DNA of 64,000 nucleotides from a virus: the IMG/VR virus record IMGVR_UViG_3300012204_000007, positions 1 through 64,000 of that record; one strand, given 5' to 3'. This document shows, piece by piece, positions 25,853 to 33,232 of this stretch. The notes beneath the pieces are model-generated. The model saw nothing but the letters and a program-made list of their open reading frames with translations. It was not told the DNA's origin and searched no databases. The translations under genes and the position numbers were made by a program. Every line of letters starts with the position of its first letter. Positions within the stretch are counted from its first letter, which is position 1.

Positions 25853-26965
25853 ATGGCACACGTAAGAGACCTAGGCTTCCATCAGGGAGACCTAATGGAT
25901 GCTATTGATGCCGGTGATGTACGTGTCCAATTCCATCCAGAATTTCCCAACTTGGCTATCTTCAACTACACCGAAGATGTACAATGGAGAAACAAGTGGA
26001 ACAAGGTCACCCTTGCATGCCGTGGATTGATTCTTGACCTTGATACCGGCGAAATCGTAGCGCGCCCTTGGAACAAGTTCTTTAACCTTGGCCAGCGCGA
26101 CAATGAGATTGAGTTTGATGCGCCGGTAGAAGTTACCGATAAGATGGACGGCAGTCTAGGTATTCTTTATCGCCAGTCTGACGGAAAGTTGGCTATCGCT
26201 ACGCGCGGTAGTTTCGCAAGCGACCAGGCTATCCACGCCACACGTCGTCTATATGACTACGATATGAACTACTTCGGTATAGATGATTACACTATTCTAT
26301 TTGAGATTATCTATCCAGATAACCGTATCGTCTGCAACTATGATGGCATGGACGAACTAGTTCTACTCGGAGCGGTACATAAGCAACATGGTCACTACTA
26401 TGGTCCAGATATTGCATTCAGCATTGGTTGGAACGGTCACAGAACGCTTAAGTTCTCATATGACACTTTCGGTGAGGCCATTGGTGCTATTGATAGGCCA
26501 GGTGCCGAGGGTATCGTAATCCGCTCCGGTAACAAAATGGTAAAGTTGAAGCAACAGGACTATGTAGAACTGCATAGGATTGTAACCAACTTGTCTCCAA
26601 AGACCATTTGGGAAATGCTAGGTGACGGTAAGACCATTGGTGATATCAACGCCGGTATTCCAGACGAGTTCCATAAGTATGTAGAAGATATCGGTAATAG
26701 TCTACTTAAGATGGCAAGTGAAATCAAGTATCAAACCTCTCTTGAGTTCAATAGAATTATGGTTTCGATGGGTCGTCGCTCTGCTGTCTGGGATAATAAT
26801 GACTATCCTGAGTTCTCACGCAAGAAGTTTGCTGAAAGGGCTAAGGGGTCAGAGCACACAAAGTATCTATTCCTACTACTTGACGGCAAGTCTATAGATG
26901 ATGTAGTATGGCAGTCTATCAAGCCGCGCGGCGACGTGAAGACTTTAGTGAAAGATGAGGGATGA
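25853..26965 (+). CDS. RNA ligase, T4 Rnl1-like
   Basis: CRGLI, KFFN, DKMDGSL, FEII, EGIVI, KLK. Confidence 0.9.
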   Translation: MAHVRDLGFHQGDLMDAIDAGDVRVQFHPEFPNLAIFNYTEDVQWRNKWNKVTLACRGLILDLDTGEIVARPWNKFFNLGQRDNEIEFDAPVEVTDKMDGSLGILYRQSDGKLAIATRGSFASDQAIHATRRLYDYDMNYFGIDDYTILFEIIYPDNRIVCNYDGMDELVLLGAVHKQHGHYYGPDIAFSIGWNGHRTLKFSYDTFGEAIGAIDRPGAEGIVIRSGNKMVKLKQQDYVELHRIVTNLSPKTIWEMLGDGKTIGDINAGIPDEFHKYVEDIGNSLLKMASEIKYQTSLEFNRIMVSMGRRSAVWDNNDYPEFSRKKFAERAKGSEHTKYLFLLLDGKSIDDVVWQSIKPRGDVKTLVKDEG

Positions 26966-27479: not shown

Positions 27480-28001
27480 ATGAACTTCGATGAACTAAGC
27501 ACTGACTTTGAGAGCCACCGCATTGAAGGATGGCTACATACCGGCGACCATATTAGTGTTCCGCTCATTAGCCAGATTACCGATAATCTCTATGTTGGTG
27601 GCTGCATTGGCGGTGTAGAACTGGGAGACTTCTTCACCTATGTATTCTCAATGTACAAGTGGGAAAAGTATTCTACCACACCGGGTACGATACATGTCGA
27701 GGTTGAGATGTATGACTCTGCTAATGTTGATGTCGATGCGGTAATGGACTATTCCTTGCAGGTAGCAAATGCTATTCAGACAGGCGGTAATGTTTTGGTA
27801 CACTGCCAGGCCGGTATCAATAGGAGTAACCTCATTGCTACCGCCGCGCTAGTGAGGCTAGGATACACTGTGAGTGACGCTATTGACCTATTACGAGAGA
27901 AGCGTAGCAGCCTAGTTTTGGCAAATCAGACGTTCGAGCGCTGGCTTAGGGATGAACTACAGGATTGGCTTGACGCCAACCCTGTCTCTATGGTAGAGTA
28001 G
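27480..28001 (+). CDS. dual-specificity (Cys-based) phosphatase
   Basis: VHCQAGINRS P-loop; ISQITDNLYVG. Confidence 0.9.
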   Translation: MNFDELSTDFESHRIEGWLHTGDHISVPLISQITDNLYVGGCIGGVELGDFFTYVFSMYKWEKYSTTPGTIHVEVEMYDSANVDVDAVMDYSLQVANAIQTGGNVLVHCQAGINRSNLIATAALVRLGYTVSDAIDLLREKRSSLVLANQTFERWLRDELQDWLDANPVSMVE

Positions 28002-28372: not shown

Positions 28373-28548
28373 TAACAGAACGCATAGCATATCTATTGTT
28401 TGAGCGTCAGGCTAAGACTTATGCCGATGATGATAATATAGTGGATACCGCGTTCATCTGGCAGACGGAAGATGGCGTCAGAGAGTTCTGGATAGAAGAG
28501 GCCACAGCCATCTTAGGATGGCTCGGAATTAAGGATAAAACATTATGA
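28369..28548 (+). CDS. hypothetical protein
   Basis: ATGA overlaps both sides. Confidence 0.6.
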   Translation: MITERIAYLLFERQAKTYADDDNIVDTAFIWQTEDGVREFWIEEATAILGWLGIKDKTL

Positions 28549-29114
28549 CTAAGTTAACCATTATGCGTGGCGTGTCAGGTTCTGGCAAGTCTACCTGGGC
28601 AGACTCCCAGTTCGGTGCCACCGTCGTATCTAGAGACCGTCTGCGCGTTGCACTGTTCGGTTCTGACGGCGTAGATTATTACCAATCTCCCAATCTGCGC
28701 GCTCGTGAGGACCTGATTACTGAGGTCGAGCACGCCGCTATTCGCACGGGGCTGGCTGCTGGCAACCACGTAATTTCTGATAATACCAACATCGAGCCGA
28801 AGTACATGAAATCAATTGTTAAAATTGCTCATGATGCTGACGCCGAGGTCGAAGTTCAGGTCGTTGATATCACACTTAACGAGGCTCTTACTCGTAATGC
28901 TGAGCGAGCCCTGGGTGGCGGTCGTAATGTACCTGACTCTACTATTAAAAAGCAATTTGAGCGATTCAGGCAAACTCGCAATTGGGTGCCGCCTTTGCGA
29001 CCCGCGCTTCCTAAACCGTACAACGGTACGCCCGGTAAGCCAAAGGCGTTTATGGTTGACCTTGACGGCACTCTGGCGCATCGGACTTGTCCGGTCCATC
29101 AATCTATGGTATAA
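28545..29114 (+). CDS. pseT: polynucleotide kinase, N-terminal part (kinase plus phosphatase motif I)
   Basis: GVSGSGKST P-loop, SRD, DNTN; DLDGT near the end. Confidence 0.88.
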   Translation: MTKLTIMRGVSGSGKSTWADSQFGATVVSRDRLRVALFGSDGVDYYQSPNLRAREDLITEVEHAAIRTGLAAGNHVISDNTNIEPKYMKSIVKIAHDADAEVEVQVVDITLNEALTRNAERALGGGRNVPDSTIKKQFERFRQTRNWVPPLRPALPKPYNGTPGKPKAFMVDLDGTLAHRTCPVHQSMV

Positions 29115-29121
29115 TGAATGT

Positions 29122-29646
29122 ATGGCTCACCAATTAGTAGGACAAACATTCGGTATGTTAACAGTTACGGAGAAAACAGACGAGCGCTCTCCGAGCAAGA
29201 AAGTCATCTGGATGGTGTCTTGTATCTGTGGCGGTTCCGCGAGAGTAACCACCGCCGACCTGTTGCGTAGTGATGGAAAGGCTAGGGTGTCCTGCGGGTG
29301 CATGAACTTTCGAAAAGGTCAAGAAAGTTCAAATTGGAAAAGCCCCAATGCCATCTCTGTGAAATATTGGAATGCCGTTCGAACCTCGGCTTCTCGGAGA
29401 AATTTTGATTTTAATATTACTATAGAATACGCATTTCAGCAATTCACTGGTTCGTGCTCTCTCACCGGCCTGCCCATTGAATTAAATTCAACAGCATCTA
29501 TTGATAGAATTAATTCCGCACTTGGATATGTCGAGGGTAATATTCAGTGGTTGCATAAAGATATCAATAGGCTAAAAAGCAATTGGCCCGAAGATAAATT
29601 CGTAGAACTATGCAGAAAGGTTGTGAAACATGCAGAAGGCCATTGA
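29122..29646 (+). mobile_element. HNH homing endonuclease inserted in PNK gene
   Basis: GQTFGMLTV, CICG, SCGC, SIDRI...GY..GN..W...IN; own promoter TTGTCC-N17-TATAAT. Confidence 0.85.
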
Positions 29647-30049
29647 ACCTGGATGTACGTGTCGCTCTCCGTTCGACTGGGCGCGGGTAGGCGAAGACGA
29701 TGTAGATGTCGTAATTGCCGAACTGGTTAATGTATTGGCATCTACCAATTTTGCATTAGACATGGGTCATTATAAGGTTATTGTCATGTCTGGTAGAGAT
29801 GCTGTCTGTCGGGATGAGACAATGGAATGGTTAGACAACGCTGGTATTCAATGGGATTATCTATTCATGCGTGCAGAAGGTGACAACCGTCCTGACAATA
29901 TCGTAAAGGCTGAACTATTTGATACTGATGTTCGTGACAACTTTGATATTCAGTTTGTCATTGATGACCGCTGGCAGGTTTGCAAGATGTGGCTACAGAT
30001 GGGTCTAAAGGTTCTCAATGTGTCTGGACTAGACCGTGGCGAGTTCTGA
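29630..30049 (+). CDS. pseT: polynucleotide kinase, C-terminal HAD 3'-phosphatase part
   Basis: RSPFDW, SGR, MRAEGDNRPD..VK, DDR; GAAAGG RBS. Confidence 0.85.
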   Translation: MQKAIEPGCTCRSPFDWARVGEDDVDVVIAELVNVLASTNFALDMGHYKVIVMSGRDAVCRDETMEWLDNAGIQWDYLFMRAEGDNRPDNIVKAELFDTDVRDNFDIQFVIDDRWQVCKMWLQMGLKVLNVSGLDRGEF

Positions 30050-30254
30050 TTGCCGTTCTAAATCGCCGGTATTGGTACAGGATATGCTTGGGCTATCCTG
30101 TACCAAGCCGAGAGGGCATAAAAGTAGATTTCATTCTAATCCTCAATCAAAGAAACGATGGACTGGCGGTATTAAAACGGTTCCATCTTGGGAAATTGTT
30201 GATGATGGATATATGAGCCAAGCCGATTGGGATACTTGGGGACGATTGCTATGA
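30036..30254 (+). CDS. small Cys/His protein
   Basis: C..C...GH...H motif. Confidence 0.55.
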   Translation: MASSDCRSKSPVLVQDMLGLSCTKPRGHKSRFHSNPQSKKRWTGGIKTVPSWEIVDDGYMSQADWDTWGRLL

Positions 30255-30502
30255 CCAATTCTAATATACAAATAACATTTACGAATGGTCAATTTATAAA
30301 GCCTGCTGTTACATCAAATGGTAATGGTCTCTTAGATTTCAATACTCACGCTAAACCATTACCGTGTTATGTCAGGAAGGGCGGACCTAAATCACGTATC
30401 TACTGTGAGGTATTCAAACATGTACCGCATGAGTTACACTGTGGTAGGTCTCGCACAGGTAGATGGTGGTCATGGGTTGACAAGCCGCTGCCGGTAGTGT
30501 AG
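30251..30502 (+). CDS. small Cys/His protein
   Basis: ATGA overlap; C..C...H...H motif. Confidence 0.55.
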   Translation: MTNSNIQITFTNGQFIKPAVTSNGNGLLDFNTHAKPLPCYVRKGGPKSRIYCEVFKHVPHELHCGRSRTGRWWSWVDKPLPVV

Positions 30503-31222: not shown

Positions 31223-33232
31223 TTGATTCCCAATGCTGTTGACACCGTAGATGTCACATCAAACATGACCGATGAGGCTGTTCCGTTCTCTGTTGATGAG
31301 AATGGTCTAGTCAAGTTGATGAGTGTGTTGACCAATCTCTATTCTGACCCAGAGGGCGCGGTGGTCCGCGAATACCTCACCAATGGTCTTGACTCTCAGA
31401 CCGAGGCATTGCGAACCGTCCCCGGTTTTGTATGGCGTCCTATCGAGGTTACCACGCCTTCTTACTTCAACACAGAGTATAAGGTCCGTGACTTTGGCCT
31501 TGGCATGAACGCAAACGATATTGCCAACACCTATTCACGATACCTTACTTCCACCAAGGAATCGAGTCAGTTTGAGACCGGTATGCTTGGTCTCGGTAGC
31601 AAGTGTGCTCTGACCTATACCAGTCAGTTCAATATTGTTGGCTGGAAGGATGGCGTTAAGACTAGCGCCATTATCTCTCAGGATAGTTCAGGCATTCCTG
31701 TGTTCCGTATTGTTGATACCCGCGCCACCGACGAGCCCAACGGCGTAGAGATTTCTATTCCCGTGCGAGAGCGCAACTCGTTTGCTGAGAAGACCGCACA
31801 CTTTCTTAAGTTCTGGAAGGATGGCCAGGTTCTTGTTAATGGAGAAGAGCCGGTAAAGCACGGATGGCAGGAGGTCAAGCCTGGTGTTTTCATTATTGAG
31901 CGGCCTAGCAACTCTTATCGTACGCAATTGCCTAAGTCATACATCGTAATGGGTAATGTTGCCTATCCGATTGATGATGAGTTCATCAATGTCGACCTGC
32001 GCAACTGCTACACAGGCTTCGCCGCCTATGTTGAAATGGGCGCGGTAGACTTTCCTCCTAGCCGCGAGCAGTTGTTCTATAATAACCGCACCAAGGCAGT
32101 TATTGAGAAGGTCAGCGCAGGTCTATTTGAACTTCTGCTAAAGACAAAGTTGGATGAAGTTACTAGTGCGCCAGACCATCGGAGCGCTTGGCATCGGTAT
32201 AATGCGTTATCTTACTACTTCAAGAACACAAAGGCTGCGAAGGAACTTACCTATAAAGGTGACGAGTTCGTAGACAACGTTCTGCATGATACGCGATATC
32301 TGCATTGGAATCTACAGGGCATTAGCAAGATATCAGCAGGCAGTTATATTGCCTTGTCTAATATCTTCGGTATAAAGAACGATGTTGTAAGAAATAATGT
32401 TATCTTTGTTACCGGCCTTGATGATGATGTTAACCCTCATGCTTCTTTTAAGAAGAAGATTAACTATTACATGACCGAGAATGGTATGTCAGCGGGACAT
32501 GCCTACCTCATGAATGATGATGTTGACTCTATCTGGTTGAAGCAGGTGCCTCGTGTAACCGCTGATACCATTAAGGCTATCAAGATTCCTAGGACGCCCT
32601 CTAGTGGTCCGCGTGATGTTCCTACCTATGATGTATATTCAATTGAGGCGGATGGAAATGTTAAGTACAATGCTCTTACCGCTGTGTCTGTACCGACTGG
32701 TAAAAAATTGGTTTATATCAGCCCGCAGGAAATCAAGGAATCCTATAGGATGAACGGTTGTACGCCAAACGAACTCGTGAAGACTCTAGGCAAGCATTAC
32801 ATTCTTGTTGTTCTGGCTAAGAACCGTTTTGATAAGTTTTTGCGTAACCACAAGGCCAGTACGGTGAGCGGTGCTTTACAGGATGTTCTAGACTCTTATA
32901 TCTCGAAAATCACAAAGGTTGAGTCTACGATGGCCGGTATGCAATATGAAGAGAAGCGATTCTTCAAGGCTATTCAGGCCGACTCACTTAAGGACCCTGA
33001 CCTGCGTAAGTTGGCTATAGCAGTTCAATCAAGCACAGGTAATAAGTCAAACTATGAGAAGGCGCATAGCGTTTATCAGTTTGGTAGGCGCATAGGACTT
33101 CATTTGAAAATGCCTGAGGCCAAGCCAATATTCAGGCTTTCAGATGCCTACCCTCTGATTAACGTCGGTAGTAGGGCTCCGAGGAACCACGTAGTGCTTT
33201 ACTGTAACGCAGTATACAGCGCTAAATCGTAA
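31223..33232 (+). CDS. rIIA: rIIA-like protein (GHKL ATPase N-terminus)
   Basis: LYSDPEGAVVREYLTNGLD, VRDFGLGM, STK, GLGSK. Confidence 0.88.
   Translation: MIPNAVDTVDVTSNMTDEAVPFSVDENGLVKLMSVLTNLYSDPEGAVVREYLTNGLDSQTEALRTVPGFVWRPIEVTTPSYFNTEYKVRDFGLGMNANDIANTYSRYLTSTKESSQFETGMLGLGSKCALTYTSQFNIVGWKDGVKTSAIISQDSSGIPVFRIVDTRATDEPNGVEISIPVRERNSFAEKTAHFLKFWKDGQVLVNGEEPVKHGWQEVKPGVFIIERPSNSYRTQLPKSYIVMGNVAYPIDDEFINVDLRNCYTGFAAYVEMGAVDFPPSREQLFYNNRTKAVIEKVSAGLFELLLKTKLDEVTSAPDHRSAWHRYNALSYYFKNTKAAKELTYKGDEFVDNVLHDTRYLHWNLQGISKISAGSYIALSNIFGIKNDVVRNNVIFVTGLDDDVNPHASFKKKINYYMTENGMSAGHAYLMNDDVDSIWLKQVPRVTADTIKAIKIPRTPSSGPRDVPTYDVYSIEADGNVKYNALTAVSVPTGKKLVYISPQEIKESYRMNGCTPNELVKTLGKHYILVVLAKNRFDKFLRNHKASTVSGALQDVLDSYISKITKVESTMAGMQYEEKRFFKAIQADSLKDPDLRKLAIAVQSSTGNKSNYEKAHSVYQFGRRIGLHLKMPEAKPIFRLSDAYPLINVGSRAPRNHVVLYCNAVYSAKS

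Follow-up and report, generated by a model that had tools for sequence, protein, structure and literature searches.

How can an enzyme still be made, and still work, once a mobile element has divided its gene? The question is raised by a locus in the first 64 kb (64,000 nucleotides, nt; hereafter the window) of the IMG/VR virus record IMGVR_UViG_3300012204_000007 (120,830 bp, about 94% complete), a record whose sequence occurs in soil metagenomes. Three open reading frames (ORFs) follow one another head to tail on the + strand between positions 28545 and 30049: the N-terminal half of a polynucleotide 5′-kinase/3′-phosphatase (Pnkp, or PNK), an HNH-like endonuclease ORF and the C-terminal half of Pnkp. 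HNH-bearing introns and inteins often interrupt phage genes, which would favour a rejoining of the two halves by splicing. Here, a free-standing HNH-like gene, and not an intron or an intein, splits the PNK phosphatase domain, and the reading that we favour, at a probability of about 75%, is that Pnkp was cut by a mobile HNH cassette and that its two halves re-associate into a working enzyme.

Anatomy of the split Pnkp gene

The N-half ORF (28545–29114, + strand, 189 amino acids, aa) contains a P-loop kinase domain of the AAA_33 family (residues 4–142, E = 9.9e-24), in which the motif G9-x-S-G-S-G-K-S-T is invariant, and ends with ...KPKAFMVDLDGTLAH, followed by RTCPVHQSMV and a stop codon (TAA, 29112–29114). 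It combines a complete P-loop 5′-kinase with strand beta1 of the phosphatase, which carries motif I (D172-L-D174-G-T, within FMVDLDGTLAH), and with a 10-residue tail (R180–V189, codons 29082–29111) that holds two candidate ligands, C182 and H185. The invariant catalytic residues D172, D174, G175 and T176 are all retained. The C-half ORF (29630–30049, + strand, 139 aa) begins with an 11-residue head, MQKAIEPGCTC, with candidate ligands C9 and C11, and contains the rest of the HAD fold with motifs II–IV. From RSPFDW on, it matches PF25109 (HAD_PNKP, E = 9e-34, profile positions 17–139 of 143), and its catalytic residues S54-G55-R56, K93 and D112-D113 are retained as well.

The HAD phosphatase domain is thus divided over two ORFs, rather than being carried with the kinase on one polypeptide as in T4-type Pnkp. 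The PHROG profile for PNK, phrog_505, is covered at positions 1–175 by the N-half and at positions 177–291 by the C-half; since the two halves cover the profile without a gap, the cut is clean and nothing was lost. The family profile spans T4 PNK (1ltq, 1.1e-61) and Pnkp1 (4xrp, 4e-64) end to end, and the locus is, as far as its sequence tells, a split form of a T4-type bifunctional polynucleotide 5′-kinase/3′-phosphatase with predicted activity.

The whole insert (29082–29662, 581 nt, + strand) extends from the His179 codon of the N-half to the Arg12 codon of the C-half and replaces 3–4 loop codons of unsplit genes. Most of it is taken up by the HNH-like ORF (29122–29646, + strand, 174 aa), outside of which only 40 nt on the 5′ side and 16 nt on the 3′ side remain (56 nt in total). 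The first 17 nt of the C-half ORF overlap the 3′ end of the HNH ORF, which lies in a frame different from that of the Pnkp halves, and stop codons interrupt the frame of the N-half. The GC (guanine plus cytosine) fraction is 0.39 in 29300–29599, within the HNH ORF, versus about 0.50 in the N-half. The heptamers ACTTGTC and ACGTGTC, both coding T-C, resemble a short direct repeat on either side of the insert. No intron family of Rfam was detected in 28400–30300 on either strand (E ≤ 10), the group I ribozyme core (P3–P9) was not matched, and RNA folding at both insert boundaries is not significant (z-scores of +0.59 and +1.45). These results agree with the initial annotation, which had placed the cut of the PNK between DLDGTLAHR and RSPFDW, had seen the catalytic motifs kept in both halves (DxDxT; SGR, K and DD) and had considered that the HNH ORF almost fills the insert, leaving no room for a group I intron core. 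The phage collection contained no near-DNA match, and the soil-metagenome contigs that cover the locus presented neither a joint nor a cassette-free allele, which is evidence in neither direction.

The same site is split in several phage lineages

Among the 278 homologous proteins that we collected, 200 are longer than 270 aa and have a recognisable junction. The spacing from DxDGT to R[GS]P[FY] is 6–7 residues in 186 of these 200 unsplit proteins, typically as LAH-MNGK-RGPF, in keeping with the earlier statement that intact homologues hold the two junction motifs a few residues apart. The initial annotation had also proposed to look for a CxxH...CxC loop in unsplit homologues: it is absent from the junction in 200 of 200 (a single Cys is present in five), which indicates that the tails are new and not part of the native enzyme.

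A near-length search with the N-half, for which the best 120 of 172 proteins were examined, identified among the matches listed five proteins of about 187 aa (the window's own included) that end in a RTC[PT][VI]H tail. The tails read LAH-RTCPVHQSMV in the window, LAH-RTCPIHQKGV, LAH-RTCTIHQ and, in two proteins, LAH-RTCTIHP; the four other split N-halves are P0020, P0043 (with a longer called N-terminus), P0055 and P0061. The corresponding search with the C-half led to nine proteins, five of which (the window's own and P0272–P0275) begin with a head of the form [EK]PGCTC-RSPF. These heads start with MQKAIEPG (window), MPEKREPG (two proteins), MPEKRKPG or MQKPEPG, each followed by CTC-RSPF, and the four remaining matches are fragments, proteins with mis-called starts or stand-alone phosphatases. 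Source contigs of equal length suggest that P0061 pairs with P0272 (3,716 bp) and P0020 with P0275 (92,122 bp). The 50%-clustered library contained stand-alone or truncated phosphatases and no further C-halves with Cys-containing heads. Two proteins, P0177 (125 aa, MDGKRGAFEW...) and P0218 (120 aa, MKDRSPYHW...), begin right at the junction and lack a Cys head, which could make them C-halves from splits by other types of cassette, or else artefacts of gene calling.

At the DNA level, a degenerate pattern for the C-half head had no match in viral, metagenome or genome contigs, and the corresponding pattern for the N-half tail had none in viral contigs and four in metagenome contigs, all of them chance matches outside a PNK context. 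Searching the viral contigs with the single proteins led to one unsplit relative, L002 (46%), and to no relative of the N-half.

A second type of cassette was found among 80 IMG/VR loci that encode relatives of the C-half. In 79 of them, one open frame contains both DxDGT and the phosphatase; 69 of these 79 also have a P-loop, and the ten others are stand-alone or cut by the contig end. The only split locus, L048 (on a 206,805-bp contig), presents the order RnlA-like ligase gene, Pnkp N-half, HNH-like ORF of 220 aa and C-half. Its N-half ends with DIDGTLAH-ISRKIQ-stop and its C-half begins with MKEKYDNSM-RSPFDW, so that the residue boundaries are the same as in the window, and neither tail (ISRKIQ, MKEKYDNSM) contains Cys or His. 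The HNH ORFs of L048 and the window are 50% identical and the N-halves 29% identical; the endonuclease gene is thus more alike between the two loci than the gene that it splits. From the proteins compared here, six phage lineages are split at this one site, by two lineages of cassettes.

Signs that the cassette is mobile

Each split half finds its nearest match among unsplit homologues rather than among other split halves. Split N-halves are 67–83% identical to some unsplit homologue versus 53–59% to other split N-halves, and split C-halves are 72–90% identical to some unsplit homologue versus 56–74% to other split C-halves (the comparison took in 191 unsplit proteins). We built quick maximum-likelihood trees of the N-part (118 rows, 2 of 120 sequences having been dropped because they had no DxDGT match) and of the C-part (106 rows). 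The N-part tree requires five changes of the split state, at least three of which are forced by branches with a Shimodaira–Hasegawa-like approximate likelihood-ratio (SH-aLRT) support ≥95; the C-part tree requires four, one of which is forced by well-supported branches. The presumed pair P0061/P0272 is a mosaic: P0272 is 89.5% identical to the unsplit protein P0031, to which P0061 is 60.6% identical, the closest protein to P0061 among the matches listed being P0062 (75.3%).

The identity pattern, the tree and the mosaic together suggest that the cassette moves between Pnkp alleles by recombination and takes the tails along; it appears, from these comparisons, to do so at one site. Presence or absence at one site (six split loci versus 200 unsplit ones) and a phylogeny incongruent with that of the host gene are what is expected of a homing gene. 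The closely related unsplit proteins P0028, P0029 and P0033 are themselves mosaic directly past the junction, the first 60 or so residues of the phosphatase differing sharply in otherwise near-identical proteins. The surroundings of the junction seem to form a hot spot of recombination, even in genes that have no cassette.

The HNH-like ORF and the signals carried by the cassette

The HNH-like ORF is present as a single copy in the genome. It matches phrog_3322 (E = 4.9e-25) as well as phrog_374 and phrog_3118 ('HNH endonuclease'), with E-values ranging from 4.9e-25 to 9.7e-11, and the phage ORFs that best match it are annotated as HNH endonucleases, with an identity of at most 37%. Its N-terminal part is zinc-finger-like (CxC...CGC) and is followed by a core with SIDRIN...GYVEGNIQWLHKDINRLK. 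No match was obtained in Pfam (E ≤ 10) or NCBIfam (E ≤ 0.1), the comparison with PDB sequences gave one chance match only (E = 0.24), and the AlphaFold model is weak, with a mean predicted local distance difference test score (pLDDT) of 62 that falls below 50 in the core. A search with a two-member alignment (window and L048) recovered the L048 contig only.

The core of this HNH-like family (the window's ORF, L003–L012 and L048) can be written SLDRID...GN.QW.HK..N, with an Arg that is invariant in 10 of 10 aligned members. The D-H histidine of canonical HNH enzymes would presumably stand where the family has this Arg. The family, which is widespread in phages, seems to have an unusual catalytic arrangement. 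A well-conserved His follows later in the family (QW.HK..N).

Two putative expression signals coincide with the ends of the HNH-like ORF. A sigma-70-like promoter match (29087–29115, + strand; TTGTCC, a 17-nt spacer and TG-n-TATAAT, a match to 10 of 12 consensus positions only) ends 6 nt before the HNH ATG; its −35 box overlaps the Cys182 codon, the His185 codon falls in its spacer and its −10 box overlaps the stop codon of the N-half. Matches of this kind number 7 in 2 kb versus 3.5 ± 1.9 in shuffled sequences, and the function of this consensus match is only putative. The window and L048 cassettes both have a TATAAT box that coincides with the stop codon of the N-half or closely follows it. 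No Shine-Dalgarno sequence is present between the promoter-like site and the HNH ATG (29087–29124), so that the HNH mRNA, if the promoter-like site is real, would be leaderless or nearly so. In a 1.8-kb soil-metagenome contig from the same phage, the sole difference is a C>T change at 29091, which alters the −35 box and results in the substitution P183S, at an x position of CxxH.

At the other end, the Shine-Dalgarno-like sequence and the start codon of the C-half are themselves part of the HNH coding sequence: an AAAGG site (29616–29620, + strand), inside the HNH codons C-R-K-V, precedes the ATG (29630) by 9 nt. The separate ribosome-binding site that the initial annotation had attributed to the C-half is thereby recovered as a sequence match. 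The surrounding block, TGCA(G/A)AAAGGT...ATG, is conserved between the window and L048 cassettes, and this conservation of translation signals in both cassette lineages suggests that the C-half is there to be translated.

Proposed re-assembly of the two halves

The cut falls in the loop that directly follows the catalytic DxDGT of the phosphatase domain. There, we propose, the cassette supplies an in-frame tail and stop codon to the upstream half, a −10-like box to its own ORF and, in its last codons, a Shine-Dalgarno sequence and an ATG, plus the head, to the downstream half. Two polypeptides would result, one composed of the kinase and strand beta1 with both catalytic aspartates, the other of the rest of the HAD fold. 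The anatomy, the recurrence and the signs of mobility are seen in the sequences; we infer that the halves are translated separately, re-assemble and are active: they would rejoin non-covalently, beta1 slotting between two strands of the C-half and rebuilding the 3′-phosphatase site. The tails, located at the junction, may help to close it, a role of a metal being left open.

Modelling of the complex, run with our own 40-row alignments and with Zn included, is consistent with this mechanism. The model scored 0.87 versus 0.04 for the best of three controls; 58 of 80 solved complexes attained this mark, as against 2 of 110 mismatched pairs. Agreement in contacts between the runs is at least 94%, and the pLDDT of the partners is at least 83. 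The tightest modelled contacts connect residues 165–171 of the N-half with residues 49–52 and 105–111 of the C-half, that is, beta1 between two strands. Association is therefore predicted to occur mainly via the insertion of beta1, for which the metal would not be required. Residues 180–186 of the tail and 6–12 of the head lie within the confident modelled interface. Of the two-chain prediction with Zn that the initial annotation had called for, the association part gave the high-scoring complex just described, whereas the model gave neither a position nor a score for Zn, and no zinc geometry was obtained.

The rebuilt enzyme would act, like its T4 counterpart, with the RnlA-type RNA ligase of the phage to heal and seal RNA ends; in the T4 pathway, the healing of 2′,3′-cyclic or 3′-phosphate ends for this ligase depends on the phosphatase. 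Positions 26018–26563, 2 kb upstream of Pnkp, encode an RnlA-type RNA ligase domain (PF09511, 2.3e-17), and positions 907–1467, near the start of the window, a second ligase-family domain (PF09414, 7.6e-17). The two ligase domains and Pnkp together suggest a T4-like RNA repair module.

Several points weigh against this reading of a mobile cassette and a re-assembled enzyme. Intact PNKs have been solved (1ltq, 4xrp), and the high score of the complex may for this reason reflect likeness to them rather than binding; moreover, the model says nothing on affinity. The endonuclease activity is a prediction, made for an ORF with no Pfam match, an Arg at the place of the D-H His and a poor model. The C-part tree is compatible with a single origin of the split, and the pairings P0061/P0272 and P0020/P0275 are deduced solely from contigs of equal size. 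In the quick N-part tree, the terminal branch of each of the five split N-halves exceeds in length those of its unsplit sisters (for the window's protein, 0.67 versus 0.21), which could correspond to relaxed constraint, and the intactness of the C-halves could be partly due to recent insertion, as for P0272, 89.5% identical to an unsplit protein.

Role of the Cys/His-containing tails

The tails could be passengers, conserved through the recent spread of one cassette lineage and through signals at the DNA level (a promoter, recombination flanks or protection against self-cleavage), the peptides themselves doing nothing specific; we regard this as a serious possibility, a little short of even odds. 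A mobile cassette drags its flanks along, the promoter-like site overlaps the N-tail, with its TATAAT common to L048, and the tails of the L048 lineage are wholly different. Furthermore, the ligand positions are no more conserved than their neighbours. On the other hand, His185 falls in the promoter spacer, where a constraint on sequence is not expected, and the PGCTC codons lie 3′ of the HNH stop codon and of the Shine-Dalgarno/ATG, where we detected no signal. The head residues have diverged (MQKAI versus MPEKR), which implies that the cassettes are not near-identical copies, and the comparable tails of the phage Aeh1 system proved essential (PMC3045599).

A more tentative explanation, which we consider possible and would not call probable, is a zinc clasp: a single Zn ion would be held between the two chains by C182 and H185 of the N-tail and by C9 and C11 of the C-head. 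Such a clasp would close the cut loop beside the active site, stabilise the heterodimer and travel with the cassette as an antidote to fragmentation. The spacing of the ligands is knuckle-like (CxxH, CxC), they stand 3–6 residues from the ends that must meet, and the CxxH...CxC combination is absent from the 200 unsplit homologues. All four are invariant in five of five N-tails and five of five C-heads, in contrast to the x positions (P/T, V/I and P183S) and to the outer parts of the tails, which differ (MQKAI, MPEKR and MQK- heads; 1–4 residues past the His). In the Zn-containing model, the segments 180–186 and 6–12 are predicted to lie in the confident interface. A precedent exists in CD4/CD8alpha-Lck, in which a CxC(P) motif on one chain meets two Cys on another (PMC12198760).

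Against the clasp, nine of 13 core tail positions are invariant, including the non-ligands R, T, P, G and T, so that the ligands are not singled out; the chance that all four fall among nine invariant positions of 13 is 126/715 = 0.18. The sample is small, consisting of five sequences, with DNA for one of them. The Cys182 codon lies within the promoter-like −35 box, and the short repeat ACTTGTC/ACGTGTC implies that one Cys per side may be a duplicated remnant. The complex modelling yielded no zinc geometry or occupancy. Finally, L048 is split at the same site by a related cassette with tails devoid of Cys; a split of this kind can thus do without a clasp. The suggestion in the initial annotation that the Cys/His tails form a zinc site has therefore fared unevenly: the ligands are present in five of five sequences on each side, in backgrounds that are 53–74% identical, but they are no likelier to be conserved than their neighbours. 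Its extension, in which the HNH cassette, with its stop codon, promoter, Shine-Dalgarno sequence and ATG, would be a portable split-and-clasp module whose RTCxxH and PGCTC half-sites bind one Zn and re-staple the cut Pnkp, is still more speculative, and we hold it to be rather unlikely.

Alternatives to re-assembly

The insertion might also have killed the phosphatase, the kinase of the N-half working alone and the C-half being a remnant that has not yet decayed. The kinase domain is indeed complete in the N-half, and the long terminal branches of the split N-halves noted above would fit this scenario; as the split of P0272 looks recent, its intact ORF is weak evidence of selection. Against this, the C-half is full-length and has every invariant catalytic residue in each of the six split loci, and the Shine-Dalgarno sequence and ATG of the C-half are conserved although the HNH ORFs are only 50% identical. 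The N-half also retains beta1 and both aspartates instead of ending after the kinase, the complex model is in favour of re-assembly, and the T4 repair pathway needs the phosphatase beside an RnlA-type ligase. A dead phosphatase thus seems improbable.

A rejoining of the halves by group I or II RNA splicing, by protein splicing (intein or split intein) or by translational bypass can be practically dismissed: a degenerate intein has been raised as a possible origin of such tails (PMC3045599), but the locus has no Rfam intron at E ≤ 10, only 56 nt outside the HNH ORF, boundaries without significant structure, in-frame stop codons and the HNH ORF in another frame. An intein or split intein was rejected on account of the broken frames and of tails that are far too short (10 and 11 residues), and a bypass because the gap measures 545 nt, some ten times the length of the 50-nt bypass described for T4 gene 60 (10.1101/2022.08.31.505936).

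Other genes near Pnkp

Between the RNA ligase and Pnkp, an ORF at 27480–28001 contains a HCxxGxxRS motif and matches the PHROG 'dual specificity phosphatase' (1.2e-34). A 669-aa ORF of the rIIA lysis-inhibitor family (31223–33232; phrog_612, 3.3e-84) is located 1.2 kb downstream of Pnkp.

Comparison with known systems and significance

The closest known system is nrdA-a/mobE/nrdA-b of phage Aeh1, in which tails that arose with the insertion of mobE are essential for activity and which led Crona et al. to propose such tails as a possible general way to neutralise gene fragmentation (Crona et al., 2011; PMC3045599). The initial annotation had named it as a precedent, and the choice was apt, its element-derived tails being essential. 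In both systems, the free-standing gene of a homing endonuclease of the HNH family (a putative one in our case) divides an enzyme gene into two ORFs, each translated on its own (as is predicted in our case), the split adjoins active-site residues, and the insertion provides unique tails that are absent from unsplit homologues. Function is restored in Aeh1 without RNA or protein splicing, as is predicted here. The two systems differ in the host gene, which encodes a ribonucleotide reductase in Aeh1 and Pnkp in the window, and in the tails, which are oppositely charged in Aeh1 (pI 10.4 and 3.8, with zinc mentioned 0 times in the available text) and short and Cys/His-rich here. In addition, the Aeh1 split was a one-off, transposition-like event, whereas the Pnkp split is observed in at least five diverged Pnkp backgrounds and with a second cassette lineage; Aeh1 has been dissected biochemically, whereas the Pnkp split is known from sequence and model (PMC3045599).

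Genes 39 and 60 of T4 with mobA also correspond to an enzyme gene split by a mob-type insertion, with tail-like extensions on both products; the enzyme is a topoisomerase there, gene 60 needs a 50-nt bypass, and the available text reports no Cys/His tails (PMC3045599). T4 PNK (1ltq) and Pnkp1 (4xrp) share with the split enzyme an N-terminal P-loop kinase followed by a HAD phosphatase with DxDGT, and the RnlA-type ligase gene near the split Pnkp recalls the T4 RNA-repair pathway. They are single chains, whereas the chain is broken here 3 residues past DxDGT and tails replace the loop of 3–4 residues. The HNH genes of introns and inteins resemble the cassette in that an HNH-type ORF occupies a critical, conserved site of an enzyme gene and is present or absent among homologues; they differ in that the Pnkp locus has neither a ribozyme nor an intein frame, and two proteins take the place of splicing.

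Zinc sites shared between chains are also known, one such system being the Rad50 zinc hook. In CD4/CD8alpha-Lck, one tetrahedral Zn is held by two short motifs on two chains, one of them CxC(P), as the Pnkp tails would do; that system belongs to eukaryotic signalling, uses four Cys and involves no gene fragmentation, whereas the site would be Cys3His here and its zinc is hypothetical (PMC12198760).

In the available parts of the literature on polynucleotide kinase, split genes and homing endonucleases, we found no report of a split Pnkp. The locus is a recurrent, mobile gene-splitting cassette in phage Pnkp, and it joins the 'genes in pieces' kind. Our view of endonuclease-fragmented enzymes with rescuing tails relies mainly on one dissected case, Aeh1 NrdA. 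The Pnkp locus adds a second enzyme and a comparative series, with six lineages, two cassette types and close unsplit relatives, which makes the role of the tails, be it assembly, metal binding or nothing, directly testable. It also points to the loop after motif I of the HAD phosphatase as a place that tolerates chain breakage. If the zinc clasp were true, the tails would represent a compact natural tag pair for the re-assembly of split proteins, and if the cassette carried both the split and the clasp, it would offer a third way, besides RNA and protein splicing, to make homing harmless, and the first to use a metal.

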